Part shown: one piece after another, positions 1,145 to 19,717 of the stretch
Position numbering within the stretch: the first letter of the stretch is position 1
How the letters are laid out: every line of letters starts with the position of its first letter
Origin: an uncultured delta proteobacterium
Lineage (GTDB): Bacteria; Myxococcota; UBA727; VGSZ01
Assembly (NCBI GenBank): GCA_963775425.1
Contig: CAVZJB010000003.1
Coordinates: 1 to 64,000 of the forward strand
DNA: 64,000 bases
Reading direction: 5' to 3'
Translations under genes and position numbers: made by a program
The notes under the pieces: model-generated
What the model was told of the DNA's origin: nothing
The model's database searches: none
What the model saw: the letters and a program-made list of their open reading frames with translations, nothing else

Positions 1145-1464
1145 CGGCGCTCCGCGGCGGTGAGAACGCGGATGAGTGCGTCCTCGCAGAACGACATCGG
1201 CACGCGCACGACGCGGCCGTTGGTCAGCGCCACTTCGATGCGCTCGCCGGCGGCCTCGACCAGGACCGGCTCGATCTCGACGAACGCCGGCTCCGCTCGA
1301 GCGAGCGCTCGCGTCGGCCCATCCGAGCGTCCGAGGAACCAGCGCCACCACGACAGCGTCCTCGCCTTCACGCCCTCACGCGACGCGAACTCCGCGCAGG
1401 ACAGCCCACTCTTCTGCCACCGCGCGACGCGACGCGCCCACGAGGCCCTCGACTCCCTCGCCAT
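1141..1464 (-). CDS. tnpA: IS66 accessory protein TnpA (HTH)
   Basis: WARRVARWQKSGLSCAEFASREGVKARTLSWW and FVEI...IEVALTNGRVVRV; 4-nt overlap with tnpB. Confidence 0.88.
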   Translation of the reverse strand: MARESRASWARRVARWQKSGLSCAEFASREGVKARTLSWWRWFLGRSDGPTRALARAEPAFVEIEPVLVEAAGERIEVALTNGRVVRVPMSFCEDALIRVLTAAERR

Positions 1465-1534
1465 GCACCACCTCCGCGCGCGCGACTACCGCGGCGAGGT
1501 GGCGCCGCGAGGACGTACTTGGCCGGCCGGATAC

Positions 1535-2098
1535 CACGTTGTGCCACCGGAGCGCGAGCATCTCGCCGAGGCGCAGGCCCGCGTCGCCGCCGAGGAGCAC
1601 GAGCAGCTCCGCGCGCCCGCCGACCTTCTTGGCGGCGGCGAGGAGGCGCTCGTAGTCGTCGACGTCGTAGAACGGGCGCTCGCTGCCGTGCCAATTCAAG
1701 AGCTTGATGCTGCAGGGCAGGGTGTCGATGACGCCCCACTCCACGGCCTTCTTCAGCATGACGTTCAAGACCGTGAGCGTGTTGTTCACGGACTTGGGCG
1801 ACAGGTGCGCGAGCCTGGCCTTGAGCTTCTGCACGTCGGCGTTCGTGATGTCGTCGAGGCGCGGGTCCCCGAGGAGCGGCACGTGGTACGTGCGCAGGAT
1901 CTGCTCTTTGTTCCAGATGGTGCTCGGCTTCTGCCGCTCGGCGCGGCAATGCTCTTCCAGGTACCGCTCGCGAAACTCGGAGATGCGGGGTGCCGGCGGC
2001 TTGTCGATGACCTCCTCTGCTGTCGAGGCCCTACCCGCGAGCAGCCGCTGTCGCTCGCGCGCCTCGCCCCACTTGCGGGCGGCCGACAGCGACGACAC
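1535..2098 (-). pseudogene. Tyrosine recombinase/phage integrase fragment interrupted by IS66
   Basis: SAM-like core (KSVNNTLTVLNVMLKKAVEWG) and box I (DAGLRLGEMLALRW), then homology ends at the IS66 end; no clear start upstream. Confidence 0.85.
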
Positions 2099-2266
2099 GG
2101 GAGCGACGATGCGCTCTGTCCGGCACTGACGTCCCTGGCGCCGGCCGCTCCGCGGGCGGCGGCCGGCACGCGCTCCCTGTGGGGCTGCGCCCTGGGCCCG
2201 ACAGAAATCTCCGATTTTCGGTCCGGATGAACGCGGTCTCGCGCCAAAGTCCGGGGGTCGCGGATA

Positions 2267-2292
2267 TGGCGTCCCCCTGCGGGATCCCGTGT
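2267..2292 (-). other. Degenerate tRNA 3'-end fragment (tRNA-Glu-like), probable att-site remnant
   Basis: Plus strand TGGCGTCCCCCTGCGGGATCCCGTG; the reverse complement ends GGGGACGCCA (acceptor stem plus CCA); TTCGA loop missing; next to an integrase. Confidence 0.55.
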
Positions 2293-2341
2293 GCCCCGCA
2301 CTTCAACTGGGCCCGGTGAGGTGGCAAGCTCGGCGGCGCAT

Positions 2342-5300
2342 ATGCCCACCATCCCCAAGAAGCTCGTCGTCGCGCAGGTTGAAAAGAAGGTCGACGTGCG
2401 CCACGTCGAGGACGTCGGCGCGGTCGGGACCGTGAAGGCCGTCGGCGACGCCGGGAAGGCCGCGCCGCCCGGGGACCGCTTCGTCGGCAACAACGGGGAG
2501 GCCGCGGTGCCGCCCGCGCCGCCGTCCAAGCGCGCGATGCACCCGCAGCTCCAGGTGCAGCACAAGGTCGAGGCCAAGGGCGAGCAGCAAGTCGAGCAGC
2601 AGTACAGCGACTGGGCCAAGAAGTACGACGTCGACACCGCGTCCTACGGCTGGTCCGCGCCGCAGACGCTGCTGTCGCGCCTCACGGCCACCGCCCCGCC
2701 CACGAGCAGCCAACGCGTCCTCGACGTCGGCGTCGGCACCGGGCTCGCGTCGGTCCCGTATCTGGACGCGCGCTCGCAGGTCACCGGCGTCGACGTCTCG
2801 CAGGAGATGCTCGCCGAAGCGAAGGACAAGCACCCCGAGTTCCACCACCTCGACCGCTACAGCATCGACGACCCGCTCGAGACCGCGGGGCTCAAGCCCG
2901 GCACGTTCGACGTCGTGCTCTCGTCCGGCGTGCTGCACTTCAGCAAGGATCTGAAGAAGACCCTCGGCGAGCTCGACCGCGCGCTCGCGCCCGGCGGCAC
3001 GCTCGCGTTCACCTTCATCCCACCGCAGGATCGAAAGTTCGGCGCCAACACCACGCTCAACGACATCGACGGCGTGAAGGCGCACCTCGAGAAGCTCGGG
3101 CTCACGCTCGTGCACGACGAGGAGTTCGTCGCGTACCACGACAAGGGCAAAGCCGATGATCCCGTGCGCTACGCGCTGGTCGTCGCCAAGAAGCCCGGCG
3201 AGACACCGGCGGTGCCGGCGTCGCTCGACCGCACCGCCAGCGTCGATCGTGCGCGCATCGCCCGCCTGATCGGCACGCCGCTCGTCGACGGGCCCGCGAG
3301 CACCACCTGGGTGCCCGCGAACGATCCGCGCATCGCCGCGCAGTCCAAGGCGCTCCTCGACGCGATGCACGCGCAGCTCGCGGCCGGTGGCGACGTCGAT
3401 CTCGCGAAGATCCCGTTCCCCAGCGTCACCGCCGAGAGCGCCCGCCAGGGGTCGCCCGGCGTCGACGCGCTCGTGGTGCTCGCGCACCCGGACGACGAGA
3501 GCGTCTACACCGGCGGCACCGTGGCGGCGCTCACGAGCGCGGGCAAGAGCGTCTCGCTCGCGGTGGCCACCGACGGCGGCGGCGGCCGCGGCGGCAACGC
3601 GGCCGAGCTGCAGAAGAAGCGCGGCGACGAGCTGCAGAGCGCCCTGTCGGCCCTGGGCGTGACGTCGCTGTCGACCCTCGGCTTCAACGACATCGGCAAG
3701 TACAAGGACATGCACCGGAGCGAGCCGCTCACGGGCGGTGACACGCTGCGCACGTGGGGCTTCGACGCGCTCGTCGAGAAACTCGTGAAGCAGATCCGCA
3801 CCGAGCGGCCCGGCACTCTGCTCACCTTCGACTCCACGCGCGATCCGAACTTCTCGCTGCACGGCCACCACATGGCGGTGGGGAGCGCAGCGGCGGTCGC
3901 CGTCGCGCTCGCCGCGGACCCAAACGCGTTCCCCGATCAGTTGAAGGGCGGCCTCAAGCCATGGGCCGTGCTCGAGCATGACGTCGTCATCCCGAGCGGA
4001 ACGCCGGGCGGGCGACAGGTCACGGTCCAGATCGATCCGCAGGCGAAGCGCACAGCGTTGCGCGCGCACGCGTCGCAGAGCTTCTCGCTCGAGCGCGCCA
4101 TCAAGGATCCCGGCGTCACCGAGACGTGGCACACGTTCCAGTCGCGCGAGCCCACGCACCTCCTCGACGACGTCAAGGTGCACGCAGGCACCACCACGAT
4201 ACCGCTGGCGTCCGGAGAGCCGGCGCTCGCCACGCGGCTCCGCGACGGCGACCCCGCTGTGCAGAAGCTCTATCACGCGCGTCCCGTCGAGCAGGTTCAC
4301 GCAGAGACCACCAAGCGACCCATCGCGCGCAAGGAGATCGCCGCGCTCATCACCAAGCAGATGACCGCGCTCGGTCCGCTCACCGGCCCGCAGAAGAAGA
4401 ACCTCGAGCGGCTCCTCGACGAGGGCACCGGCGTCGTCGTCACCGGCCAACAGACCGGCGTCCTCGGCGGCCCGCTCTACTCGCTGTTCAAGGCCCTCGG
4501 CGCCGTAAACCACGCGTCGGCGCTCAGCGATCGCGGCGTGCCCGCGGTCCCCGTCTTCTGGCTCGCGTCCTACGACTCCGACCTCAAGGAAGTGCAGGAC
4601 ATGAAGGCGGTGGGCGCGGGGGATTCCGAAGACGCTCAGCCTCGGCAATCGCATCACCGAGCGGCCCGTGGGCAACGAGAAGCTCGGGCCCGGCGTCACC
4701 AAGATGCTCGACGAGCTCAAGGCGGTCCTCGAAGAGACCCACGCCCCGCACATGGACGCGGCGCTCAAGCTCGCGCACGAGTGCTTCACGCCCGACACCA
4801 CGTTCGCCGCGGGCTTCTCCAAGCTCATCTTCGAGCTCACCAAACAACAAGGGCTGTTGATCCTCGACCCCAACGCGCGCGAATTCTCGTCGCTGGCGCG
4901 GCCGGTGCTCGAGCGCGAGCTCTTCGCGCCCACCACCTCGAAGACCGCGATCGACACCGCCAACGAGCAGCTCGACGCGCTCGGCCTCAAGCCCCAGGTC
5001 CACGGCGGCACCGACCGCCTCAACGTCTTCTTCGTCGACGACGTCGGCAAACGCGTGTTCTTGAGCCGCGCCGAGGACGGCGGCTTCACCACCGGCGGCA
5101 CGCCCGCCAAGCTGAGCGCCGACGACGTGAAGAAGATGCTGACGACCACGCCCGAGCGCTTCACGCCGAGCGCGCTGTTGCGGCCCGTCGTCGAGGATCA
5201 AGTGTTGCCCACGCTGACGTACGTCGGCGGGCCGTCGGAGGTCTCGTACTTTGCGCAGATCGGCGGCGTCTACGACTGGGCAGGCGTGCCGATGCCGCAA

Positions 5301-5984
5301 GTGCAGACGCGGCCGTCGTTCGCGTTCGCGAACAAGAAGGACATCGCTGCGCTCGAGAGCGCGACCGGCCTCGGGATCGACGCGCTCCTCGCGCACGACG
5401 CGCCGCTCGCGATCCTCGGGCGCGCCGGTCTCACGCCGGAGGTCCGCGCCGCGTACGACACCCTCGACGCCGCGCGCGCCGCGGCCGGCGCGGCAGCGGC
5501 CGAAGCGGAGAAGCTCGCGAACGCACACGACTTCCCGTCCCTCGCCGCGCTGCAGAAGTCGGTCGCCGCGGAGGTCGGCGCCGCGCTCGACGGCGTGCTC
5601 GCGGCCGTGCGCACGGCGGGCCTCGAGCGCTGCGACAAGGGCGTCACGTTCGGGCGCGACAAGATCGGGAAGATGCTCGAGGGAATCGAGGCCGACATCG
5701 AGAAGGCCAAGAGCAATCCGGGCTACACGCCGCCGTCGGCCGCGTTCGGGCGCGTCGCCCGCGAGCTCGCGTCCCTCGACGCTCAAGCCGTGAAGGTCGG
5801 GCGCCAATCGCGCCCCGACCTCATCGGCGCGTTCCACAAGCTGAGGCCGGGCAACGAGCCGCAGGAGCGCACGATGACCATCGTGCAGCTCGTGGCCGAG
5901 CTCGGGCTCGACGCTGCGGACACCTTCGTGTCGCTCGCGCAGGTCGGCAAGCCCGGGCGCACGCTCGTGGCGGTCGACGGGTAA
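2342..5984 (+). CDS. bshC: Fusion: class I SAM methyltransferase + PIG-L deacetylase (BshB-like) + BshC cysteine-adding enzyme; +1 frameshift at G5 run 4618-4622
   Basis: VLDVGVGTG (SAM motif I); AHPDDE...HGHH (PIG-L); TGQQTGVLGGPLYSLFKA and PVFWLAS, then in the next frame PERFTPSALLRPVV..LPTLTYVGGPSEVSYFAQ and PQER (BshC). Removing one G joins the frames into ~1213 aa. Confidence 0.85.
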
Positions 5985-5986
5985 CG

Positions 5987-7381
5987 ATGTCGAAGCTCGC
6001 GTCTCACCCGCGCCTCGCGCCGCCGGCGATCCTGCCGGCGAAGCTCGGCCTCGCGACGACGACCACGACGACGGGGACCACGGGAGGGGCGCCCGTCGCT
6101 GCGCTCGATCAGTTCGCTTTCGCGCGCATCGACGAAGACCGCAGCACCCTCACGCGTGCGTTCCACAAGGCCGCGGCCAAGGCGGCGATCAAGGAGCAAG
6201 CGTTCACGGTCGCTGCGCCGTTGAACATCGGCGTCCTCTCGCTCGGGGGCATGGGGGGCAGCGCCAGCGTCGCGCGGACCGCGGCCGAGGGCCTGCAAAA
6301 GGCGGGGCACCACGTGCACATGATGACGAGCCACGGGGCCTTCTGGAATGACGCCGCCGCGCACCCCGGCATCAAGCTCGCCGAGATGGGCGTGCCGGAG
6401 TCGCCCAAGGAGCCGGACGCGTCGTGGGTGGGGCCGCTCACGGAACAGATCGTCGCGTATGCGCGCGAGAACAAGCTCGACGTCATCAACGTGCACTACT
6501 GCACGGGTATGCTCGAGGCCGCGATCGCCGCGAAGGAGATCCTCGCGAAGGAGGGCCACAAGCTCGGCGTCGCGGCGACGCTCCACGGCACCGACGTGAC
6601 GACGTGGGGGCGCTCCGCGAAGCACGGGCCCGCGCTCGCGGCGCAGTTGCAGAAGTGCGACCAGGTGTCGGTGGTCTCGCATGTGCTCGCGGATCAGGCG
6701 AAGCAAGCCTTCGGGCTGTCGTTCGAGCCCACGGTCATCTGGAACTCCATCGATCGCACGCGCTGGAACCCGACGCAGTGGTCCGACGTCCGCAAGCGCA
6801 TCGCGAAGGACGGCGAGGTCATCCTCTGCCACGTGTCCAACCTGCGCGCGGTGAAGCGCCCCCTCGACGCCGTGGACACGCTCGCGAAGGTGCGCGCCGC
6901 GGGGATCCCGGCGAAGCTCATGCTCCTCGGCGACGGGCCGCTTCTTCAGGACGTCTACGAGCGCGCGGCCGAGCTCGGCGTCGACGAGTACATCATCCCG
7001 ATGGGGCGCATCGATCCCGAGAAGCTGCCCAAGTACGTCGCCGCGGCGGACATCAACCTCGTCACCAGCGAGAACGAGAGCTTCTGCCTCGCGGCGCTCG
7101 AGGCGTGCGCGTGCGGCGTGCCCACCGTCGGCACCCACTGCGGCGGCCTCGACGAGGTGATGGGCAAGGTCGACCCCGGCGTCGATCGCACGTCGCGCTT
7201 GCTCGTGAACATCGGCGACAGCGACGGGATGGCGAAGAGTTGCATCAGCCTCGTGAAGAACAAGGCGCGGTACAAGCGCGTGCAGAACCAATGCCTCGGC
7301 CTCGCGCACAAGGCGTTCCCGCGCGACCTGCAGGTGCAGGGGTACCTGACGCTCGTCGACGATGCGCAGGCGGCCCGTTAG
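5987..7381 (+). CDS. bshA: BshA-like GT4 glycosyltransferase (GlcNAc-malate synthase) with N-terminal extension
   Basis: GGSASVA..GHHVHMMTS, LDVINVHY, TLHGTDVT, HVSNLRAVKR, SENESFCLAALEACACGVP all match BshA motifs; ATG 2 nt after the bshC stop. Confidence 0.88.
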   Translation: MSKLASHPRLAPPAILPAKLGLATTTTTTGTTGGAPVAALDQFAFARIDEDRSTLTRAFHKAAAKAAIKEQAFTVAAPLNIGVLSLGGMGGSASVARTAAEGLQKAGHHVHMMTSHGAFWNDAAAHPGIKLAEMGVPESPKEPDASWVGPLTEQIVAYARENKLDVINVHYCTGMLEAAIAAKEILAKEGHKLGVAATLHGTDVTTWGRSAKHGPALAAQLQKCDQVSVVSHVLADQAKQAFGLSFEPTVIWNSIDRTRWNPTQWSDVRKRIAKDGEVILCHVSNLRAVKRPLDAVDTLAKVRAAGIPAKLMLLGDGPLLQDVYERAAELGVDEYIIPMGRIDPEKLPKYVAAADINLVTSENESFCLAALEACACGVPTVGTHCGGLDEVMGKVDPGVDRTSRLLVNIGDSDGMAKSCISLVKNKARYKRVQNQCLGLAHKAFPRDLQVQGYLTLVDDAQAAR

Positions 7382-7386
7382 CCAAC

Positions 7387-7422
7387 GCGCCCGAGCCGGC
7401 TCGCGTGCCCTTCAGTTTTTTT
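7387..7422 (+). terminator. Possible intrinsic terminator between convergent genes
   Basis: Palindrome CGAGCCGGCTCG within a GC stem, followed by a T7 run. Confidence 0.4.
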
Positions 7423-7424
7423 CT

Positions 7425-8885
7425 TCAGTTCCTGCAGCGCGAGGTGAACGCACGCAGCAGGTTCTGCCGGGCGAACTGGTCCTCACGGAACGACCACAGA
7501 TCGAACTTCTTCTCGGTGTCGACCTTGCCCTTCGCGGGCAGCTTGATGGCGCAGTACCACCCGAGCCCGCGGGTACCCACGACGAGCTTCTCCCCGACGT
7601 TCGCCTCGATGCCGTTCACGTTGGCACCGGCGGGGATGAACCAGCTCTTCTTCTCGCCGGGCGTCTCGAGCTTCTTCGGCGGGAGCTGGCGCGGGTCCCA
7701 GCCAAGCTCACCGCCCTCGTCACCGACGCGCAGCGTGGCCACGAACCCGATCTCGGGGTTGCCGTCGACCTTGCCGTCGTTCTTCGGCAGCTTGTTCTCC
7801 ATCTCGACGACCCAACCGCCGCCGGGCGTGTCGGGCCCGTCCTCGACGCGGCTGACGACGATGTGCGGCGGATCGAAGTCTGTCTTCAAGCGCGCTTCTT
7901 CACCGCGGTAGACCACCGGCTTGAGCTCGTCGTTGAGCGCCTTGCCGTCGGGCCCGAAGAACTGGACCTTGTTCATCTTCTCCGCGCGCTTCTCCTCGAC
8001 CTTCGCGTGGTCGAAGAAGTCCGCGGCCACCTGGTCCGACGAGATCTTGAACTTCTTGAGATCGACCTCGACGGTGCCCTCGGCCGGCAACGGGATGTTC
8101 ACGCTCCCGTAGCCGCGCACGCCGGCGCGCAGCTCGCGGCCCGCTTGCGCGATGACGCCGTAGTTGCCGCTGGCCTCGATGCGCTGCATCGCCGCCGAGT
8201 CCTTGTCGGGGCAGGCCATCGACTCCAGGCCGAGGCCGGAATTCTTCTGCGCGCCCTCGAAGACGCACGTCCCGATCCACGGCGTGTCGCCCTTGTTCTG
8301 GAAGCGCACCTCCCAGTGCGACAGCGAGCCACCCTTGCCCGGCACGGCGGTGACGCTGACCGTGCCCGCGCACGGTGGGCCCTTCCTCTTGGCGGCGAGG
8401 AGCTGCTCCACGCGCGCGCGGATGGCGTCCTTGCCTTGATCGAGGTGCAGCTTGTTCTGCGCCTGCGCCGCATAGCTGCGCATCGACGCCGTGCTGTGCG
8501 CGGCCTCGTTGCCGTACCACTGGAAGTCCTTGAAATCGATCTCGATCATGTCGCCGTCGAGGGGCGGGAGCTCGACGGTGGTCACCGCCGCGCCGCGCAG
8601 ACCGACGCGCAGGAGCGCACCTTCCTGGATGGTGACCGAGCCGCCGTTGCCCTGGTGCGTGTAGACGTCGCCGTACTTGAACGCGAGCCGGCTGCCGTCG
8701 TTCGGGTTCACGGGCAGCCCGTGGCCGTACTTCACGTGGTCGTCGTGGACCCTGAGGTTCTCCTGCCCCTTCTGCAGGACGTTGTGCGTCACGCCGATCT
8801 CGCGATCGCCCTCGTTGACGACGAGCATCTCGTACGTGCGCTCCTTCTCGTTGGGGACGATGAAGACCTTGCCGCGGATGGGCAT
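7425..8885 (-). CDS. Hypothetical protein, three-module beta-rich family (paralogue 1)
   Basis: Clear similarity to 29583..31022 and 31120..32634 (YGH, LRVGLRG, GLGLESM, GNYGV, GVRGY, GLGW); TGATG coupling to the upstream gene. Confidence 0.85.
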   Translation of the reverse strand: MPIRGKVFIVPNEKERTYEMLVVNEGDREIGVTHNVLQKGQENLRVHDDHVKYGHGLPVNPNDGSRLAFKYGDVYTHQGNGGSVTIQEGALLRVGLRGAAVTTVELPPLDGDMIEIDFKDFQWYGNEAAHSTASMRSYAAQAQNKLHLDQGKDAIRARVEQLLAAKRKGPPCAGTVSVTAVPGKGGSLSHWEVRFQNKGDTPWIGTCVFEGAQKNSGLGLESMACPDKDSAAMQRIEASGNYGVIAQAGRELRAGVRGYGSVNIPLPAEGTVEVDLKKFKISSDQVAADFFDHAKVEEKRAEKMNKVQFFGPDGKALNDELKPVVYRGEEARLKTDFDPPHIVVSRVEDGPDTPGGGWVVEMENKLPKNDGKVDGNPEIGFVATLRVGDEGGELGWDPRQLPPKKLETPGEKKSWFIPAGANVNGIEANVGEKLVVGTRGLGWYCAIKLPAKGKVDTEKKFDLWSFREDQFARQNLLRAFTSRCRN

Positions 8886-10732
8886 CACTCGCCCCCAGGG
8901 ATGCGCTGCTGCGAATAGACCACGCCGGCCTGCTCGGGCAGCTCGGCGCCGAACGCGTGCGCGACGGCGTCATTGGGTTGCTGCGGCGACGGTGTGAAGT
9001 ACAGCGGCGGCATGTGCCGCACGGTGCCCTTGCCCTCGATGCCGAGCACGGACCCGGCGCTGACGACGCACCGTGCGAGGTTGACGTTCGCGTTCGCCGC
9101 GCGATCGACCTCGGGCCCGACGGCGGTGATGGTGACGCTGAAGCGCTTGGGCACGTTGTCGAGCGTGAAGGTGGCGCGCTCGCCCTTCTTCGACAGCGAG
9201 ACGGTGCGGTGCACGGCGCTGCCGTCCTCGTTCTTGATGTCGACCAGGAGCGCGTGCGCGCCGTTGTTGCGCGCGTTCACGACGACGTCGACGTTGCCGT
9301 CGGCGCGCACGTTCTTGACCTTGATCCACACCGACGGCGGCGTGAGCTGGATGTTGCGCACCGCGTGCACGGGGTAGGGGTCGATGCGCTTGTTCACGTC
9401 GGCGTCGAGCTCCGCGAGCGCGGCCGTGAGCGGCGCGACCTTTTGCTCGGCGGCGTCGAGCGCCTTGTTGTCCGCCGGCTTGTCGTACGACAGCTTGCCG
9501 ACGTTGGGCGCGCCCTTGGCGGTGGCGTCCACGGCGGCGGCGATCTTCTGCGCCCAGTGCTTCACGTTGAAGCCCGCCGCGGCGCCGCACGCCTCCGCGT
9601 AGTCGACGAGCTGGGCCTTGAGCGCGCCGCTCTTGAGGTCCACGAGGCGCTGCACGCGCTCGTCGAACGCGTCCTTCTTGGGCCGCTCGACCGCCGCGGC
9701 GGCGTCGAGCGCGGCGCTCCGCTGCTGCACGAGCTGCGCGAGCGGCTGGAGCTGCTTGCGGGCATCGGCGGCGGCGAAACCCTCTTTTTCGCGCGTCTCA
9801 TCGAGCAGCGCCTCGCAGAGCTCGTGGACGTCGCCGCCGGGGAGCGCCTTGTCGTCGATGCCGGGGAGCAGCGCCTTGCCCTCGGCGACCCTGGCGTCGA
9901 CGGCCTCGGCGTCGGCGAGCACCGCGCGGATCTCGCCCTGCACGGCGACGAGGTCGCGCGCGTTCGCCTCGAGCTGGATCGCGGGCTGGAGGGCAGGGGC
10001 GAGCTTCGCGGTCTCCTGCTGCACCAGCGCCGTGATGGCCTGCAGGTCCGCGGGGCCCACGTCGGGCTTGTTGAGGAGCGCCCCGAGCTCCTTGTCGACG
10101 GCGGCGCCGATGGCGTCGAGCGCCTTGTCCACGGCGGCGAGCGCCTTCTTGGCACCGGGCACGTCCTTGGCGCGATCGGTGATCTGCGCGAGCTGAAGGC
10201 GCGTCTGCTGGAGCGGCCCGTCGTTGAACGCGGTGACGACGGTGCGCAACTGCTCGCGCTGCTCGTGCGCCGCGTGCTTCTTCGCGAGGTCCGCCTCGAG
10301 CGCGCGCAGCGCGATCATCGAGACGGCCTTGTTGGTGATGACGTCGCCGGCGTCGTCCGAGATGACGCGCGCCTCGACACGCACCTTGAGCCCGTCGTGC
10401 TCGGCCTCGAAGGGCTGCCCCGGCTTCACGGTGCCCCTGGCAGCGAGCGGGTGGTACTTGCGCCAGGCGACCGCGACCTTGTCCTCGCCGACGAGGCGCG
10501 CGATCACGCGCTCCTCCGCGTGCCCGTGGCACTTTTCACAGCCGTCGGTGCCGTCTTCGCCGTGGCACTGGTAGTTCTGCGCCTGCGACAGCACCACCTT
10601 GGTCGCGTCGCCCTCGACGCCGGCCTTGGGATCCGCGGCGTTTTCGAGGATCTGGTGCGCCAGGACGTCGGGGTCGGCGTCGCCTTTGCGCCATACGTAG
10701 GTCACGACGTGGAGCTTGTGTTGCACCGGCAT
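8885..10732 (-). CDS. Hypothetical protein: N-terminal domain with Cys/His cluster, long helical/coiled middle, beta-rich C-terminus
   Basis: Protein-like composition from ATG 10732; CHGEDGTDGCEKCHGH; TTGACA-17nt-GACCAT upstream. Confidence 0.75.
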   Translation of the reverse strand: MPVQHKLHVVTYVWRKGDADPDVLAHQILENAADPKAGVEGDATKVVLSQAQNYQCHGEDGTDGCEKCHGHAEERVIARLVGEDKVAVAWRKYHPLAARGTVKPGQPFEAEHDGLKVRVEARVISDDAGDVITNKAVSMIALRALEADLAKKHAAHEQREQLRTVVTAFNDGPLQQTRLQLAQITDRAKDVPGAKKALAAVDKALDAIGAAVDKELGALLNKPDVGPADLQAITALVQQETAKLAPALQPAIQLEANARDLVAVQGEIRAVLADAEAVDARVAEGKALLPGIDDKALPGGDVHELCEALLDETREKEGFAAADARKQLQPLAQLVQQRSAALDAAAAVERPKKDAFDERVQRLVDLKSGALKAQLVDYAEACGAAAGFNVKHWAQKIAAAVDATAKGAPNVGKLSYDKPADNKALDAAEQKVAPLTAALAELDADVNKRIDPYPVHAVRNIQLTPPSVWIKVKNVRADGNVDVVVNARNNGAHALLVDIKNEDGSAVHRTVSLSKKGERATFTLDNVPKRFSVTITAVGPEVDRAANANVNLARCVVSAGSVLGIEGKGTVRHMPPLYFTPSPQQPNDAVAHAFGAELPEQAGVVYSQQRIPGGE

Positions 10733-10741
10733 GCAGCCCTG

Positions 10742-10770
10742 ATGGTCGAGGTGGGCGTCCGGTCTGTCAA
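10742..10770 (-). promoter_or_regulatory. Candidate sigma70 promoter for the 10732 gene
   Basis: Minus strand TTGACA, 17-nt spacer, GACCAT, 9 nt, ATG. Confidence 0.45.
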
Positions 10771-10836
10771 GCAATAGGGATCGCCTGGTGACCCGCGCCA
10801 AAGTGCGTCGCTCGCGGGTAGTGGTAGCGTACCCAC

Positions 10837-13076: not shown

Positions 13077-15134
13077 GTGCCGCGCCTTGGTCCGCTCCCG
13101 GGAATTTCCGTCGGTCTTGTGACCAAGACCGCCGTCGAGGCCACGTCTCCATCCGCCGCCGCCCAGGACCTCGAAGGGCTCCTCGACAAGCCGGACGTGT
13201 GGTCCGGCATGGCCGCGCCGGCGCAGTCCGCCCAGGCCCCGATCCCCCCGCAGGCGCCGGCGTCCGCCGACGCGCTCCGCGACCGGGCCGAGGTCCTCGA
13301 GCGCCGCCTCGAGTCCACGCTCCGGGCCCTGCGCAAGGAGGCCGGCGGCCGCGCCTCGCCCGCCGCCACCCGCGTCCTCGGCCAGGACGCGCTGCGCCTC
13401 CTCGTCGAGGTCATGGGCACCCGCCGGCTGGCCGCCCTCGTCGACGGCGCCGCCGCTCAGCAGAAGGGCCCGCTGGCGCTGCGCACGCGCGGCGACGCCG
13501 GCGTGGCCGCGCTCCTTCAGGGCGCGCTCGCGTCCTCGCGCCCCGACCGCCACCGCGCCATCGTCGCGCTCCTGCTGTCGTCCCCGGACCTGGCCCAGGG
13601 CGGCGGCGACAAGGCGAAGGACCTGACGGAGCCCGAGCGCCGTGCGCTCGCCGACATCCTCGGCAGCCTCGATCCGTCGTACGGCGGGTTCCTGCGCGAG
13701 AAGCTCGCCACCGGCGCCAGCATCCAGGAGGTGCGCCACCTCCTCGCCGAGCGCCTGGTGCCGGTGACCCTCGACGTCGCCCCCGCCGCCGACGCGGAGC
13801 CGGGGAAGGCCGCGGGCCTCAAGTTCGACCTCGGCATCAACAAGTGGGTGCAGAACGATCGGAGCTGGCGCTACGAGGTGCGGCTCGCGCAGATCTTCGA
13901 ATACGTCGTCGACGGCGTCATCGACGGGCGCGAGGAGCTCAAGGCGCGCCTGCTCGCGTCGTCCATCGATCCCACCACCGGTGACAGCGCCGTCGACGAA
14001 AAGACCGTCTCCGCGTTCGTCGACGATCTGCACGCGGCGCTCCTCAGCGACGATCCGGTCGTGCGCAAGCTCCTCGATCAGCGCTTCGACATGATCTTCT
14101 CGACGACGGACGGCGGCGACACCGCCGTGGCCGCGCTCTGGGAGCTCCCGGTCCGCGCCACCGCGGACCTGTTCGCGGCCATGACCGACAGCGGCACTCT
14201 CGACAAGCTCCACGGGATCGCCGAGACGGCACGCGCGGCCGACAAGAAGCGCCTCGACGACATCAAGCGCTCGCTCGGCGGCAAGCTCGACAAGTACGTC
14301 GGTGTTCCTCGTCGTCACAAGCGCGCGCACGCGGCGCTCATCAACATGGGGCTCGCAGGGCAGAGCGTGGCCGAGATGGGCAAGGACGGCGGTGTCCTCC
14401 CGCGCAGCAAGACGCTCCTCGACGCCAAGGTCATGAAGGAGCGCTACGCCGACGCCGACAACCTCAAGATGCGCTTCCTCATCTCGAGCGAGATGGAGAT
14501 GATCGTCCTGTCCGACGCCGACTTCGAGGCGGTCGTGAAGAAGTACGGCTTCCCGCCGAACCACGAGCTCCTCAGCTACAACCTGCCCATCGCGTGCAGC
14601 GGCTACGTCACCGTCGATCGCGGGCGCGTCGTCGGCCTCGAGGACGACGGCGTCATGCTCAAGGGAAAGCTCCCTGAGGGCTTGCCGCCGGCCATCGAGG
14701 TGCTGCGCGCGCGCGGCTTCGATCTCGACGAAGCGAGCATCGAGAAGAGCTCGCACGTCCTCGACTTCGAGGGATTCAAGGTGCTCGCCGGCGAGCCCGA
14801 CCCCTCCGCTCACGGCGCTGTGCCCGGCGGCTCCGCGGCCGACATCCAGAAGGCGCTCGTGTCGTCGCCGCACGTGGAGCGCCCGGCGCTCGCGGTCGCC
14901 GTGGTGCGCCGCGCGATCGAGGAGGAGATCGCCAAGGGAGCCGACGAGGCCACGGCGCGCGCGCGCGTGGTGCCGTTCCTCGCCGAGGCGCTCGGGGGCC
15001 TCCACATCATCAACACCTCGCGCAAAGACTTCCGCGAGGGCCGGCTGCCGCAGCACCTGAACGAGTCGAGCGATCTGCACATCGACGCCTCGCTCGTGGA
15101 GCACCTCGTGCGCCTCGTGAAGGTGGGCGCATGA
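13077..15134 (+). CDS. Hypothetical protein, 685 aa, low-complexity leader
   Basis: AAGGAG SD before GTG; continuous with flanking genes (ATGA overlap at 15131). Confidence 0.75.
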   Translation: MPRLGPLPGISVGLVTKTAVEATSPSAAAQDLEGLLDKPDVWSGMAAPAQSAQAPIPPQAPASADALRDRAEVLERRLESTLRALRKEAGGRASPAATRVLGQDALRLLVEVMGTRRLAALVDGAAAQQKGPLALRTRGDAGVAALLQGALASSRPDRHRAIVALLLSSPDLAQGGGDKAKDLTEPERRALADILGSLDPSYGGFLREKLATGASIQEVRHLLAERLVPVTLDVAPAADAEPGKAAGLKFDLGINKWVQNDRSWRYEVRLAQIFEYVVDGVIDGREELKARLLASSIDPTTGDSAVDEKTVSAFVDDLHAALLSDDPVVRKLLDQRFDMIFSTTDGGDTAVAALWELPVRATADLFAAMTDSGTLDKLHGIAETARAADKKRLDDIKRSLGGKLDKYVGVPRRHKRAHAALINMGLAGQSVAEMGKDGGVLPRSKTLLDAKVMKERYADADNLKMRFLISSEMEMIVLSDADFEAVVKKYGFPPNHELLSYNLPIACSGYVTVDRGRVVGLEDDGVMLKGKLPEGLPPAIEVLRARGFDLDEASIEKSSHVLDFEGFKVLAGEPDPSAHGAVPGGSAADIQKALVSSPHVERPALAVAVVRRAIEEEIAKGADEATARARVVPFLAEALGGLHIINTSRKDFREGRLPQHLNESSDLHIDASLVEHLVRLVKVGA

Positions 15135-18100
15135 CCATCCGCGGGCCCAGGAGCACCCTCACACCGCCGCCGCTCACCTCGAAGGGCGCGGCCAAGCCTT
15201 CGACGACGTCCAAGCCGACCGCCGAGGAGCTGCCGGCGGCGCCCGACACCGACAAGGACGTGTTTGGCGGCATCGCCGAGCGCCTGCAGATCACGGCCGC
15301 GGCGTGGGACAAGCAGGGCGCCGCCGCCGTCGACGCCGAGCTCGCCAAGCTCGCCACGGACGCGCGCGTGCTCTCCGATCACGTCGAGGGCGGCGCCGTC
15401 GCCACGCCGCTGTCCCGCGGGGTCGGCCGCGGCGTCCTCGTCAACACCGCCGCCGGCGCCGACAAGGCGCGCGCCGCCGGCAAGCCCTACGTCCTCGTCG
15501 TGAAGCAGCTCACGCCCGCGCTCTTCGAAGCGGCGATCGGCGCGGAGGCCCTCATCGTCGTGGGGCGCAAGAGCGACGCGTCGCGTATCGTGAAGGCGCT
15601 CGGCAAGCCCGCGGTGCGCACGGCGAAGCTCGAGGAGCCGCTCGGCCGTGAGGTCATCGTCGACGGGCAACGCGGCCGCATCGCTCCCGGGACGAGCGTG
15701 GTCGTCGCCGGGAAGGCGGACCCCGCTGTGCAGGCGCAGATCGACGCGCTCCGTCACAAGCATGGGCTCACGGTCACCGCGCAGGCGAGCACCGTGGACA
15801 AAGTGAAGGAGGCGCGGCTCTTCGGCGCCGATCGCCTGCGCATCGACGGCTTCGCGCTCCTCGCCGGCACGCGCCCCATCGCGAACGTGCGCCGCTACCT
15901 GCTGGAGACCGAGGCCGCCCCGCGGCGCGCGGCGCTCGAAAACGTCATCGCGCTCGCGAAGCCCGAGGCCAAGAAGCTGCTCGAGGCGAGCGGCGCGCTG
16001 CCCGCGACGTTCGTCCTCGGTGATCAATCGCCGCAGTCGTTCTTCCCGTCGAGCCGCGAGGGCCTCGCCAAGCTCGCGGCAGAGCTCGGGCTCCCGCCGC
16101 AGCTCGTCGCCGAACGCACCGCGGAGCTCGGCGCCGGCAACTCCAAGCTCGGCCTGCGCGGCGCGCGCTGGGCCGTGAAGGACCCGGACCTCTTCGCCGG
16201 TTGGGCGCGCGCGATCTTCGAGGCCTGGGCCGACGGGGCCGAGAGCGGGCGGCAGCCGGGTCCGCTGCGCATCGAGATCCCCAACGTCGCGCTCGGCGGC
16301 GAGATGGCGCTCGTGAAGGCGCGGCTCGAGCAGGAGCGCAAGATCGTCGAGGACGAGTACGGCATCGCGCTGCCCGTGAGCTACGCCGCCGGCATCGACA
16401 CCGCGCGCGGCGCGCTCTCCACCGATGAGATCTCGCAGCACGTCAGCGCGGTAGCGTACGGCGCGTCCGAGCTCACGGAGACGCTCTACGCGATCTCCCG
16501 CGACGACGCCGAGCAGTACCTCCCGAAGATGCTGAAGGACGGGCTCTTGCCCGCGGATCCGTTCGCGGCCATCGACGTCGACGCGTTCGGCAAGATGGTG
16601 CGCGTGGGCCAGTACCTCGCGGGCGAGACTCCCAACGCGTTCCCCGCGTCCCTCTCGGGCCCGCAGGCGATGACGGCCAACGGCATGTTCGTCGCCGCGC
16701 AATCTGGTGTGCGCGACATCGTGGTGCCGTCGTCGTCCGCGCTGCTGGCGCGCATGCTCGACGCCAGGGTGCAGACGGCGCTCAAGGCCACGGCCGGTGT
16801 GCTGGTCCCGAAAGCCGGGCTACGCGACACGCCCACCAAGCTCTTCGATCTGCTCGTCTCGCGGAACGACACCGTGAAGAAGGGCGGCACGCAGAAGGTG
16901 CCCGAGGGCGTCACCGCGCTCGAGCACGTCGAGCGTCTCCAAAAGCAGGTCGAGGCCGGCAGCATCAGCACCGCGGACGCGCTCCTGAGCGTGCCTCCGA
17001 ACATCGTCGATCAGCTCAGCAAGCCCGTCGTGGATCCGGCGGCGCAGGTGGCGCCGCTCTCGAAGGGCATCGCCGCGTCCCCGGGATGTGGTCAGGGGCG
17101 CGTCGCGCTGTCCAAGGAGGCCGCGGCGGAATTCGCGGCCGCGGGCGAGCCCTACGTGTTGATCGTGAACGAGGTCCACGCCGACGAGGTGGAGGCGACG
17201 CGCAAGGCGGCGGGCCTCGTATCGGTGCGCGGCGGCAAGACGAGCCACGCGGCGATGATTGCGAGCAACTCCGAAGTCCCGTGTGTGATGGAAGAGAAAG
17301 TCCAGATCAACCTCGACAACAAGACCGTCGGCGTGGGCAAGAGCCGCGTGAAAGAGGGCGACTGGATCACCATCGACGGCACCAAGGGCCAGATCCTCCC
17401 CGGCAAGGTGCCGCTCCTGAACCCCACCAAGTCGACGGCGTTCGCGTCGCTGATGAAGTGGGCGGACCAGCACCGCACGCTCGACGTGCTCGCGAACGCC
17501 GACACCCCGCAAGAGGCCGCGACCGCTTTCGCGCGCGGCGCCAGCGGCGTCGGCCTCGTGCGCAGCGAGCACATGTTCTACGAGGCCGACCGGCTGCTCG
17601 CGTTCCGCGCGGTGATCCTCTCGGACATCGGCAAGCGCCCCGCCGAGCTGGCAGCGCTGGAGAAGGCCCAGACCGACGACTACACCGCGCTGTTCAAGGC
17701 CGCCGGCGACAAGAAGGTCGCGGTGCGTCTGCTCGATCCGCCGCTCTACGAGTTCCTCCCCACCAAGCCCGCTGAGATCAAGGAGCTCGCGCATTCGCTC
17801 GGCGTGGCGCCGGAGCAGCTCGCGGAGCGCATCAGCGGCGCGCAGGAGGTCGACTCCATGCTCGGCATGCGCGGCGTGCGCCTGGCGCTCACGCGCCCGG
17901 ACATCGAGGCCATGCAGGTCCGCGCCCTCGCGCGCGCGTACGTCGAGGCGTCCAAGGAGGGCCCGGTCGCGCCGCTGCACATCGTCGTGCCGCAGGTCAG
18001 CGCCGCCGCCGAGATCGTGGCGGCCAAGCAGCGCATCCTCGACGTCGTCGCCGAGGTCGAGAAGGAGAGCGGCACCCAGATCCCGGTGAAGCTCGGCAGC

Positions 18101-19717
18101 ATGATCGAGACGCCGCGCGCGGCGCTCGAGGCCGGCGCCATCGGCGCCATCAGCGACTTCTTCTCGTACGGCACCAACGACCTCACGCAGGGCACGCTCG
18201 GCTACGGCCGCAACGTCGCCGCCAAGTTCATCCCGGAGCTCATCAAGTCGAAGGCGCTCACGGCGGATCCCACCGAGAGCCTCGACGACAAGGGCGTCGT
18301 GAAGCTCATGCGCGTCGCGGAATTCCTCGGCAAGGACGCGAACCCCGACCTCTACGGCGGCATCTGCGGCGGCCAGGCGGGCAATCCCGCGTCCATCGAC
18401 TCGGTGCAGGCCGCCGGCCTCAAATACATCTCGGTGTCACCGGGGCAGGTCGCGAAGGCGCGCCTTGCCGCCGGCCAGGCTGCGGTGAAGGCGTCGCAAG
18501 GCCGCGGCGCTGACGTCGACGGCGGCCACGCCACCCAGATCACCGCGGAGCTCATGCGCAGCTTGAGCGCCATCCGCACGCTGCCGACGGACGCGTCGCA
18601 GCAAGGCAGCGTCGACCTCGTCGAGCTCTACCTCCGTCAGGCCACCAGCGCGGTGCGCGCCCTGCGGCGCGCCAACGCGTCCCCCGCCGTGCTCGAGCCG
18701 CTCATGCGGTCCGCCGCGGAGGCGCGCGAGGTGCTCGACGCCGATCGCCTCGCGCGCGCGCTCGCCGCCGAAGCCGCGGCGCTGCGCGCGGACGTCGCGA
18801 AGCCGGGCGTGACCCCGGGGCGGGCCGCGACGAAGGCGCTCGACGCCGCCACCGCCGCCGCGCACGAATTCGGCGTCGCGGCCACCGAAGCGCTCAAAAA
18901 GCCGCGCTCCAGCCGCAACGAGCGCAACATCGCGTCGTTCGCATGGAAGGCGCTGCGCGCGTTCGAGGATGTGCGCAGCGCGTTGATCACGGGCGGCGCG
19001 CTGCCGGCGTCGCACCGGTTCCACGCGCGGCTGTGGCACCACAACGACGGCTGGGACAACCAGCACTACACGAACGCCGGCCCGAAGCCGGGCGAGAGCA
19101 TGACGGCGTTCATGGGTCGCGCCGCGCATGAATTCCTCGACGACAACGGGCTCGAGGTCCAGCTCGCGGGGTTCCCGTTCGACAAGCTCCCGAAGGACCG
19201 CCCCGTCATCCTCGCGGTGGCGCATCGCTCCGGTGCCATCGACCGCTTCGTCACGATGGGCTCACTGCCCATCGGCAAAGACGACGAGCTCATGTACGTC
19301 GTGCGCAAGGACAGCCCCTACGACGTCATCGCGAAGAAGAGCTTCGCCCCGGCCGACAACCCCATCCTCGCGCCCGAGAGCGCCACCGAGCTCATCGCGT
19401 CCGCGAAGGACGGGTTCGCGCACGGCAAGCGCGTGCTGCTCACCTACCCGCAAGGCACCGGCACCATCGCCGGCGAGTCGCGCTACCCCGCGTCGTCCGT
19501 GGTGCGCCTGGCCATCGAGAGCGGCGCCGTGATCGTCCCCGTGACGACGTCAGACAGCTTCGACACGCGTCCCTTCGACGGCTCCGAGCTGTTCCTGCGG
19601 ATCCACGATCCCATCGACCCCCTCACGATCGACGGCGCCGACGCCGCGTTCGTCGAGAAATACGTACACACCGCACTCCAGTACGAGCTCACCAACGGCT
19701 ACCGCGCCAAGCTCTAA
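15131..19717 (+). CDS. Tandem PPDK-like (His swivel + PEP/pyruvate barrel) x2 fused to a PlsC-like acyltransferase; no ATP-grasp domain
   Basis: Second copy has ASPG, GGKTSHAA, ITIDG, ANADTP, GVGLVRSEHMF, RLLDPPLYEFLP, MLGMRGVRL, MIETPRAAL, FFSYGTNDLTQ, GICG; first copy degenerate; C-terminal HRSGAID and YPQGT. Confidence 0.85.
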   Translation: MTIRGPRSTLTPPPLTSKGAAKPSTTSKPTAEELPAAPDTDKDVFGGIAERLQITAAAWDKQGAAAVDAELAKLATDARVLSDHVEGGAVATPLSRGVGRGVLVNTAAGADKARAAGKPYVLVVKQLTPALFEAAIGAEALIVVGRKSDASRIVKALGKPAVRTAKLEEPLGREVIVDGQRGRIAPGTSVVVAGKADPAVQAQIDALRHKHGLTVTAQASTVDKVKEARLFGADRLRIDGFALLAGTRPIANVRRYLLETEAAPRRAALENVIALAKPEAKKLLEASGALPATFVLGDQSPQSFFPSSREGLAKLAAELGLPPQLVAERTAELGAGNSKLGLRGARWAVKDPDLFAGWARAIFEAWADGAESGRQPGPLRIEIPNVALGGEMALVKARLEQERKIVEDEYGIALPVSYAAGIDTARGALSTDEISQHVSAVAYGASELTETLYAISRDDAEQYLPKMLKDGLLPADPFAAIDVDAFGKMVRVGQYLAGETPNAFPASLSGPQAMTANGMFVAAQSGVRDIVVPSSSALLARMLDARVQTALKATAGVLVPKAGLRDTPTKLFDLLVSRNDTVKKGGTQKVPEGVTALEHVERLQKQVEAGSISTADALLSVPPNIVDQLSKPVVDPAAQVAPLSKGIAASPGCGQGRVALSKEAAAEFAAAGEPYVLIVNEVHADEVEATRKAAGLVSVRGGKTSHAAMIASNSEVPCVMEEKVQINLDNKTVGVGKSRVKEGDWITIDGTKGQILPGKVPLLNPTKSTAFASLMKWADQHRTLDVLANADTPQEAATAFARGASGVGLVRSEHMFYEADRLLAFRAVILSDIGKRPAELAALEKAQTDDYTALFKAAGDKKVAVRLLDPPLYEFLPTKPAEIKELAHSLGVAPEQLAERISGAQEVDSMLGMRGVRLALTRPDIEAMQVRALARAYVEASKEGPVAPLHIVVPQVSAAAEIVAAKQRILDVVAEVEKESGTQIPVKLGSMIETPRAALEAGAIGAISDFFSYGTNDLTQGTLGYGRNVAAKFIPELIKSKALTADPTESLDDKGVVKLMRVAEFLGKDANPDLYGGICGGQAGNPASIDSVQAAGLKYISVSPGQVAKARLAAGQAAVKASQGRGADVDGGHATQITAELMRSLSAIRTLPTDASQQGSVDLVELYLRQATSAVRALRRANASPAVLEPLMRSAAEAREVLDADRLARALAAEAAALRADVAKPGVTPGRAATKALDAATAAAHEFGVAATEALKKPRSSRNERNIASFAWKALRAFEDVRSALITGGALPASHRFHARLWHHNDGWDNQHYTNAGPKPGESMTAFMGRAAHEFLDDNGLEVQLAGFPFDKLPKDRPVILAVAHRSGAIDRFVTMGSLPIGKDDELMYVVRKDSPYDVIAKKSFAPADNPILAPESATELIASAKDGFAHGKRVLLTYPQGTGTIAGESRYPASSVVRLAIESGAVIVPVTTSDSFDTRPFDGSELFLRIHDPIDPLTIDGADAAFVEKYVHTALQYELTNGYRAKL

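Follow-up and report, generated by a model that had tools for sequence, protein, structure and literature searches.

A rare, conserved cassette of a methyltransferase–deacetylase–BshC fusion gene and a BshA-like glycosyltransferase gene in a genome of the Myxococcota

In bacteria that lack glutathione, thiols of the bacillithiol type are seen as the redox buffer, and three separate enzymes make them. In the bacillithiol pathway itself (e.g., in Bacillus subtilis, Bacillus anthracis and Staphylococcus aureus), these enzymes are BshA, BshB and BshC. The mycothiol pathway (MshA, MshB, MshC and MshD) follows a similar logic, i.e., a family 4 glycosyltransferase (GT4), then an LmbE-type deacetylase and then the ligation of cysteine on a glucosamine scaffold, with inositol as the aglycone. 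A methylated variant, N-methyl-bacillithiol (PMC6282198), and its enzyme in Chlorobaculum tepidum, NmbA (CT1040, PDB 9RI2; PMC12719100), are established; NmbA is a class I S-adenosylmethionine (SAM) methyltransferase that goes together with BshA/B/C-type enzymes and is encoded by a separate gene. Here, we describe a locus at positions 2342-7381 of a 64,000-nucleotide stretch of DNA (hereafter, the window), which is the first 64,000 nucleotides of contig CAVZJB010000003.1 in the genome of an uncultured delta proteobacterium of the Myxococcota (assembly GCA_963775425.1). The locus carries methyltransferase, PIG-L deacetylase and BshC domains in a single fusion gene, broken by one extra base as assembled, followed by the gene of a BshA-like GT4, and belongs to a rare, conserved cassette whose fused enzymes probably perform chemistry of the bacillithiol type.

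The cassette shares its three enzyme families, and the logical order in which they act, with the bacillithiol pathway, and its best relatives of solved structure come from that pathway (3mbo, 5d00 and 4wbd). However, the BshB- and BshC-type domains form one polypeptide here, to which a methyltransferase is added and, in some relatives, the GT4 as well; further, the GT4 belongs to a sister subfamily of BshA, genes for bacilliredoxins and YpdA were not found in the window's genome, the hosts are glutathione organisms, and most of them carry a dedicated gene of the major facilitator superfamily (MFS). As opposed to the stand-alone NmbA, the methyltransferase is fused and shows no specific similarity to NmbA, and, unlike the mycothiol pathway, there is neither an MshC-type (cysteinyl-tRNA synthetase-like) ligase nor an MshD. 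That is, the cassette works like the bacillithiol/N-methyl-bacillithiol pathway, yet it is no plain member of it, because the GT4 and the deacetylase score below the equivalog cut-offs, the methyltransferase looks unrelated to NmbA, and the partner genes of bacillithiol were not found. Such proteins already carry the automatic names "BshC" or "LmbE deacetylase/methyltransferase". Among the titles and abstracts listed in our literature searches, none gives an account of a BshB-BshC or methyltransferase fusion, and the words "fusion" and "fused" are absent from PMC6282198 and from the NmbA preprint; the species list in Supplementary Dataset 1 of PMC12719100 might count such proteins.

The features of the cassette, in positions of the window, are as follows:

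2342-5984, forward strand: methyltransferase–PIG-L–BshC fusion gene, read in frame 2 and then in frame 0, with one extra base between the two.
2342..4624, forward strand: 5' part of the fusion gene in frame 2, from the ATG at 2342; methyltransferase, PIG-L and the first ~135 amino acids (aa) of the BshC domain.
2672..3016, forward strand: core of the class I SAM methyltransferase, aa 111-225; Pfam Methyltransf_11/12/25/23.
3470..3901, forward strand: PIG-L/LmbE-type zinc deacetylase domain, aa 377-520; PF02585 at 73.6 bits, with a match to 3470-3901 in the genome's own search.
4220..4624, forward strand: N-terminal piece of the BshC domain, TGQQTGVLGGPLY..., with ASYDSD at 4565, aa 627-756; PF10079 and TIGR03998.
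4618..4625, forward strand: site of the extra base (+1 shift), with a G5 run at 4618-4622 and TT at 4624-4625.
4626..5984, forward strand: 3' part of the fusion gene in frame 0; remainder of the Rossmann-like BshC domain to ~5312, then a helical C-terminal region and the TAA at 5982-5984.
5987..7381, forward strand: BshA-like GT4 glycosyltransferase of 464 aa, with a new ATG at 5987 and its stop at 7379-7381; TIGR03999.

A single forward-strand frame without stops runs from 2231 (or 2291) to 7381, of which ~4625-5985 is Arg/Ala-rich, out-of-frame text. Codon-usage log-odds, trained on the genome's own long open reading frames (ORFs), turn positive from 2342, flip frame at ~4620 and flip back at ~5990. 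The scan of 1900-7700 gave no promoter-like sites, with terminator-like sites there at chance level, and there was no Rfam match at the gathering score in the window.

The motifs quoted by the first-pass annotation, which was made from the letters of the window, are all in place (LDVGVGTG at 2720, AHPDDE at 3482, HGHH at 3860, ASYDSD at 4565 and HYCTG at 6494), and its claim that the three domains share one polypeptide is borne out by the Pfam and NCBIfam placements and by intact homologues. The forms that it took as "usual" are approximate: B. subtilis BshC has AGEDHD, B. anthracis BshA has HYAIPHA, and BshB has His110-x-Asp112-His113 (PMC4101496).

In the BshC domain, the profile of Pfam Rossmann-like_BshC (PF10079) is matched over its positions 12-146 in the first stretch and 165-379 in the second (137 bits), and the two pieces split by the frameshift score 95.6 bits (profile 6-137) and 191.0 bits (profile 155-382) against TIGR03998, for which the equivalog cut-off of 265.8 is exceeded by intact homologues (298 bits for P0002 and 336.8 bits for P0010). 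Its best solved relative is BshC of B. subtilis (4wbd, 2.7e-33), whose blocks GQQxGxxxGPxYxxxK, (A)xEDHD and RPxxQ/E..xPTxxxxxGPxE are all present in the window, with ASYDSD as the one departure. In the PIG-L domain, the zinc motif is kept. In the LmbE superfamily this motif is HXD1D2 plus a further His, i.e., a His2-Asp site with D1 as the general base (PMC4101496); it corresponds here to AHPDDE (3482) plus the last His of HGHH, which lies within SLHGHH (HGHH at 3860), and H394-E398 and H521-H524 are invariant in 7/7 full-length fusions. The best solved relative of this domain by sequence is MshB (1q74, ~8e-7). The methyltransferase domain follows an N-terminus of ~85 aa of low complexity, matches Pfam Methyltransf_11/12/25 at aa 126-223, and has an intact SAM motif I (LDVGVGTG, 2720-2743). 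Its AlphaFold2 (AF2) model (2594-3256, from 17 sequences) has a mean predicted local distance difference test score (pLDDT) of 89.8, and matches class I methyltransferases at E ~1e-13.

That a BshA-type GT4 follows the fusion, as the first-pass annotation had also proposed, was equally clear. The five best PDB matches of the 5987-7381 product are all BshA (3mbo at 1.3e-44; 2jjm, 6d9t, 6n1x and 5d00 at ~1e-40), with the next family at 1e-7, and the MshA model gives it only 47 bits. The motifs TLHGTDVT and HVSNxRxVKR and the donor-side motifs are conserved in the GT4s of the cassette (alignment A3). An N-terminal extension of ~80 aa is common to the closest homologues, and an identical 464-aa protein (P0041) is recorded for the same contig.

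Fusion and GT4 constitute a real but rare, conserved gene family. A species-level genome scan (one genome per species) returned 40 loci, of which the 24 strong ones (L026-L049) were analysed, leaving out 16 weak loci (L050-L065) that are PIG-L matches mostly in metagenome-assembled genomes (MAGs) of Actinomycetes. By record title, the strong loci belong to cyanobacteria (12), Myxococcota or "Deltaproteobacteria" (9), Candidatus Competibacteraceae (2) and one unclassified MAG, and the cyanobacterial carriers include Calothrix sp. PCC 7716 and NIES-4105, C. parasitica NIES-267, Dulcicalothrix PCC 7102, Scytonema, Richelia and Scytonematopsis. The fusion is present with its two halves in 21/24 loci, and a BshA-like GT4 lies downstream on the same strand in 21/24, with the remaining three loci stopping at a contig edge before that place; the GT4 comes immediately after the fusion in 20 of these 21 loci and ~5 kb off in L030. 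A protein search with the first stretch of the fusion gave nine intact proteins of 991-1224 aa that contain PIG-L and BshC (intact fusions overall span 990-1250 aa), as well as methyltransferase–PIG-L proteins of ~630 aa; the methyltransferase domain is present in eight of the nine (P0002-5, P0009-11 and P0014), while P0015 has PIG-L and BshC only. When the BshC part was compared with 1.84 billion representative proteins, 4593 relatives were obtained at E<=1e-3 and only 30 at E<=1e-30; the top relatives are mostly fused proteins of at least 990 aa, and the canonical BshC of ~540 aa come next at 100-130 bits. Cassette-linked GT4s score 222-849 bits in the protein search, apart from canonical BshA (at most 164 bits).

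Natural fusions of the Rosetta-stone kind argue strongly that a single pathway uses all four activities. Pfam searches of nine proteins revealed two, P0084 (1434 aa) and P0179 (1360 aa), with all four domains in the order methyltransferase, PIG-L, BshC and GT4, and in two loci of the genome scan a single ORF spans the fusion and the GT4 (L036, 5995-10317, 1440 aa; L042, 5815-10302, 1495 aa). Three more proteins (P0074, P0078 and P0089) are BshC-GT4 fusions, possibly cut N-terminally. Together with the synteny above, these proteins uphold the two-gene pathway unit that the first-pass annotation had suggested. An all-against-all comparison of flanking ORFs added one further conserved gene, which comes immediately behind the GT4 in 16/24 loci and encodes an MFS transporter with 12 helices; the transporters are 48-58% identical between phyla, and their best models, all weak, are of the drug/metabolite-exporter type (MxcK, Bcr/CflA and Tet). 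Beyond this two- to three-gene unit, no other biosynthetic genes are common to the loci. Closer to the window, the distribution is patchy, since among 40 relatives of its genome there was a single strong match (G001, of the same family and identical to L026); one genome of the same order has a BshC gene adjoining a PIG-L gene.

We computed a quick maximum-likelihood tree of the BshC core with 92 rows: the window, sequences from 19 loci, 27 fused proteins from the database and 45 stand-alone proteins taken at random from 104. Left out were 20 proteins of odd length and 12/163 candidates that were covered in part only. The 47 fused rows all group on one side, along with one 535-aa protein, and the fused/stand-alone label requires two changes on the tree vs. 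~31 in shuffles. The window pairs with P0002 (Shimodaira-Hasegawa-like approximate likelihood ratio test, SH-aLRT, 99), and P0003 and L026/P0004 come next (98). The cyanobacterial and Competibacteraceae sequences form one clade (99) that is nested among rows which, where labelled, are Myxococcota; on a tree whose root is not established, this nesting would fit a transfer from donors that resembled Myxococcota. The composition and codon usage of the window's cassette are host-like (the window has a G+C content of ~70%), which argues against a fresh import from a low-GC donor.

If the domains act as their relatives do, the most likely product is a methylated cysteine–glucosamine–aglycone compound of the bacillithiol type. 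Under this model, the GT4 would transfer N-acetylglucosamine (GlcNAc) from UDP-GlcNAc to a small, hydroxy-acid-like acceptor, be it malate or not, the PIG-L domain of the fusion would take off the acetyl group, and the BshC domain would join cysteine to the freed amine. The SAM methyltransferase domain would then methylate the product or an intermediate, either at the amine of cysteine, if NmbA is a guide, or at a sugar hydroxyl, and the MFS pump next to the GT4 in most other hosts would probably export the compound. Cyanobacteria and gammaproteobacteria are glutathione organisms as well, and the host of the window (genome of 8.26 Mb in 18 contigs, 94.55% complete) has a match to glutathione synthetase GshB at 299.8 bits (cut-off 299.05). 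Glutathione-making hosts together with a conserved pump make an accessory thiol, a secreted one or a metabolite that binds metals likelier than a main redox buffer.

Several observations weigh against this model, and especially against a plain bacillithiol pathway. At the most general level, we infer every catalytic step and the product from sequence, and the branch that parts fused from stand-alone BshC is weak (SH-aLRT 65). More specifically, all three cassette GT4s scored against TIGR03999 fall below the BshA equivalog cut-off of 273.7 (245.6 bits for the window, 244 for P0043 and 256.6 for P0055), as opposed to 385 bits for a canonical myxococcal BshA (P0062). Two loops of the N-domain also differ in the alignment: LGG(M/L)GGS is present in 10/10 cassette-linked GT4s in place of the canonical YPxxGGS, and HYA(V/A)G(L/M) in 8/10 (the window has HYCTGM and P0061 has HYGCGL), for a cassette pattern of HYAxG[LM]xEA, plus two insertions, vs. 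HYAxP[HN]A; the five canonical BshA in the same alignment all keep YP/LP..GGS and HYA(V/L)P(H/N). We take these altered loops (LGG[ML]GGS and HYAxG[LM]), as N-domain loops of GT-B enzymes, to face the acceptor, and malate as the acceptor is therefore not assured.

The deacetylase departs as well. Its scores against the BshB1 (TIGR04001) and BshB2 (TIGR04000) models are 35.7 and 46.4 bits for cut-offs of 182.5 and 195.25, and those against the BshB1, BshB2, MshB and Mca models taken together are 36-48 bits (48.3 for MshB), far under the cut-offs. The substrate-binding residues of BshB are Arg53, Arg109 and His110/Asp112, with Arg109 implicated in the binding of GlcNAc-malate (PMC4101496). In SLHGHH, the equivalent of His110 is kept, with Leu for Arg109 and His for Asp112, while the near-invariant Arg of DGGGGR may be the equivalent of Arg53; the missing Arg109 leaves malate unproven as the aglycone. 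In the BshC domain, Ser replaces the His of the (E/Y)DHD motif. This departure, which the first-pass annotation had pointed out, is present but, in the alignment, confined to the subclade of the window: ASYDSD is shared with P0002 and P0003, P0004 has ASYDAD, and the more distant fusions have ASYDHD, ATQDHD or ASHDHD. Finally, the fused methyltransferase does not appear to be an NmbA orthologue (see below).

Three further points concern the state of the window's own copy. Genes for bacillithiol-dependent redox proteins were not found in the host genome: there was no match to YtxJ/BrxC or BrxA/B (PF06491) and the best match to YpdA has 166 bits (cut-off 339.9). That genome has no second BshC and no canonical BshA. 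In the window, as in L026, L038 and L045, the GT4 is not followed by the MFS gene, and the window's genome has no close copy of it, the best being 26-33% identical. Last, an extra base breaks the frame within the BshC domain, so that no uninterrupted frame runs through the Rossmann-like domain and the cysteine-adding domain cannot be made from the gene in its assembled form.

The break is sharply localized. The junction at 4616-4628 reads gcGGGGGaTTccg, and where the window has KAVGAGD|PKTLSLG, the closest intact homologue, P0002 (1224 aa), reads KAVGSGDPKPLSLG. Identity to P0002 is 76% for the 5' part (residues 56-774) and 78% for the 3' part (residues 769-1224), and there is no second stop or shift anywhere in the 3.6-kb fusion gene; one base fewer in GGGGGATT restores an intact fusion of 1213 aa. 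If the extra base is real, the gene is a pseudogene or at best yields a methyltransferase–deacetylase stump, to which ~455 out-of-frame residues are joined that lead into the frame of the GT4. The first-pass annotation had corrected one G here. Alignment to intact homologues supports a single extra base, which may be a G of the G5 run or a T; a DNA alignment of the region with L026 and L038 did not pinpoint it. Programmed frameshifting was rejected, given that the homologues read through in one frame.

A lone lesion in a 3.6-kb gene implies either a very recent mutation or an assembly error. We lean slightly toward a real, very recent inactivating mutation because the cassette lacks the MFS gene that 16/24 loci have and is adjoined by the following remnants of mobile elements (Pfam):

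3-743 (transposase fragment) and 752-1144 (Orf2), reverse strand: insertion sequence (IS) element of the IS66 type at the start of the contig.
1376-2098, reverse strand: integrase gene with only its N-terminal SAM-like domain kept.

The cassette begins 240 bases from the truncated integrase gene, which abuts the IS66 element at the contig end; the integrase looks truncated by the insertion of the IS, and the IS66 probably explains why the contig ends there. The window's copy may be a decaying island gene. An error of assembly or consensus, with the organism encoding the intact 1213-aa methyltransferase–PIG-L–BshC protein and running the pathway, has close to an even chance itself. The lesion being the only one, with strong coding signal on both sides and the identity to P0002 noted above, favours it, as do the position of the extra base at a G5 run or TT and the contiguity of the genome, which looks like long-read data (the sequencing type being our guess from 8.26 Mb in 18 contigs). 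Further, 173 candidate sites at which the coding frame changes on one strand, the site in the window among them, were picked out by a detector run over the 8.26 Mb of the genome, and these could be residual indel errors. However, homopolymers of at least five bases occur in 39/173 switch zones vs. 932/5000 random segments, i.e., there is no obvious signature of homopolymer errors, and the detector, which is unvalidated, settles nothing; the adjoining truncated integrase and IS66 and the absence of the MFS gene also speak against an error.

Other frame irregularities were seen as well. Further candidate switches lie at ~27116-27177 (forward strand) and ~26547 (reverse strand) of the window, where two ORFs without a Pfam match, 24100-27315 (1071 aa) and 27153-29168 (671 aa), have 163 bases in common but differ in frame; they may represent a single broken gene or two genes that overlap. 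In L045, the BshA-like GT4 (7587-8848) is split between two frames at ~8351, on a contig whose name suggests a long-read assembly.

Turning to the product, the cassette might make N-methyl-bacillithiol itself, with the GT4 using L-malate and the methyltransferase acting as a non-homologous replacement of NmbA on the cysteine amine. The compound and NmbA are already established (PMC6282198 and PMC12719100), the BshC-domain homologues score over the equivalog cut-off, and the GT4 has BshA as its best solved relatives and keeps TLHGTD and the donor-side motifs. The methyltransferase itself can be read both ways: its best PDB relatives by sequence are METTL27 and two kinds of amine N-methyltransferases, the bacterial phosphatidylethanolamine N-methyltransferase 8ys9 and phosphoethanolamine N-methyltransferases (4krh), whereas the Foldseek matches are led by the sugar O-methyltransferases RebM and AtmM, with PMT also among them and with E-values that barely differ from those of dozens of class I enzymes. 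The kinship to NmbA raised by the first-pass annotation did not hold up: CtNmbA (9RI2) is missing both from the 60 best of the 124 sequence matches in the PDB and from the listed Foldseek matches, the presence of 9RI2 in both libraries being unconfirmed, and no specific similarity in sequence or fold to CtNmbA was seen, so that N-methyl-bacillithiol serves as an analogy only. Adding the GT4 score under the BshA cut-off with changed acceptor-side loops, the lack of an Arg109 equivalent in the deacetylase, and the conserved MFS pump in glutathione-producing hosts, which suggests another role, we consider this product unlikely. The compact assembly line that the first-pass annotation had proposed, for N-methyl-bacillithiol or a new low-molecular-weight thiol or glycoconjugate, is supported in part.

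Alternatively, the product may be no free thiol at all, and the enzymes may tailor a glycoconjugate (e.g., a secreted natural product, a lipid or a cell-surface sugar), with the BshC-like domain ligating something other than cysteine. The hosts of the cassette are prolific producers of natural products, the MFS protein resembles metabolite exporters such as MxcK, no bacillithiol-dependent redox genes were found in the host, and ASYDSD departs from the canonical motif in the subclade of the window. In addition, according to PMC5790435, nobody has yet reconstituted the reaction of BshC, not even with the canonical enzyme. However, the conserved unit consists of just two to three genes with no other shared biosynthetic genes, the BshC-domain homologues score as equivalogs, and the three core steps fit the order of the bacillithiol reactions; a glycoconjugate is thus quite improbable in our view.

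The remainder of the window offers a few observations related to the cassette. The genome holds two PIG-L genes besides the fusion, one of which lies in the window:

33034..34620, forward strand: paralogue P0013 of 528 aa, with a degenerate methyltransferase-like N-half and an intact-looking PIG-L domain.

P0013 shares 43% identity with the fusion; its GxGxG SAM motif is lost, AHPDDES and GLHGHH are intact, and no BshC or GT4 adjoins it; in the locus of its closest relative (P0012, L045, an Archangiaceae MAG), a BshA-like GT4 comes next. It might be a conjugate amidase (Bca/Mca-like) or a spare deacetylase. Convergent on the cassette are two reverse-strand genes, 7425-8888 (487 aa) and 8885-10774 (629 aa), with no Pfam or NCBIfam match. 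A homologue of the 629-aa protein (37% identical) lies directly after the BshA-like GT4 in L045 (8912-10702, on the strand of the GT4). Both were rejected as BshC-like proteins; hhalign of the 8885-10774 product to the fusion profile had a probability of 0.3, and the ESM Atlas gave no usable match. Further downstream on the forward strand, 15131-19717 encodes a 1528-aa PEP-utilising-enzyme protein with the mobile and PEP-binding (phosphoenolpyruvate-binding) domains in mid-protein, and 19737-23531 a protein of 1264 aa that contains an esterase domain; long stretches of both lack annotation.

For the window's own genome, the meaning of these results is more modest, given that its copy is interrupted as assembled. 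For the family, chemistry of the bacillithiol type packed into one or two proteins with a methyltransferase, and linked in most hosts to a pump although these hosts make glutathione already, suggests a role of another kind, e.g., as a secreted thiol, in metal handling or in detoxification. It is tempting to go one step further and to view the cassette as a self-sufficient, horizontally mobile pathway for a new methylated, exported low-molecular-weight thiol or metal-binding cysteine–amino-sugar in glutathione-containing Gram-negatives, one that has moved between three phyla as two to three genes; we offer this view tentatively, as a possibility with somewhat less than an even chance. If it is true, and the cassette works in all three phyla, then the long-unknown activated cysteine donor of BshC would have to be a universal metabolite, and with the fused enzymes the reaction of BshC could be reconstituted directly. 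A BshB-BshC or four-domain fusion that works after transfer across phyla would represent a convenient, self-contained test system for this reaction (see PMC5790435).

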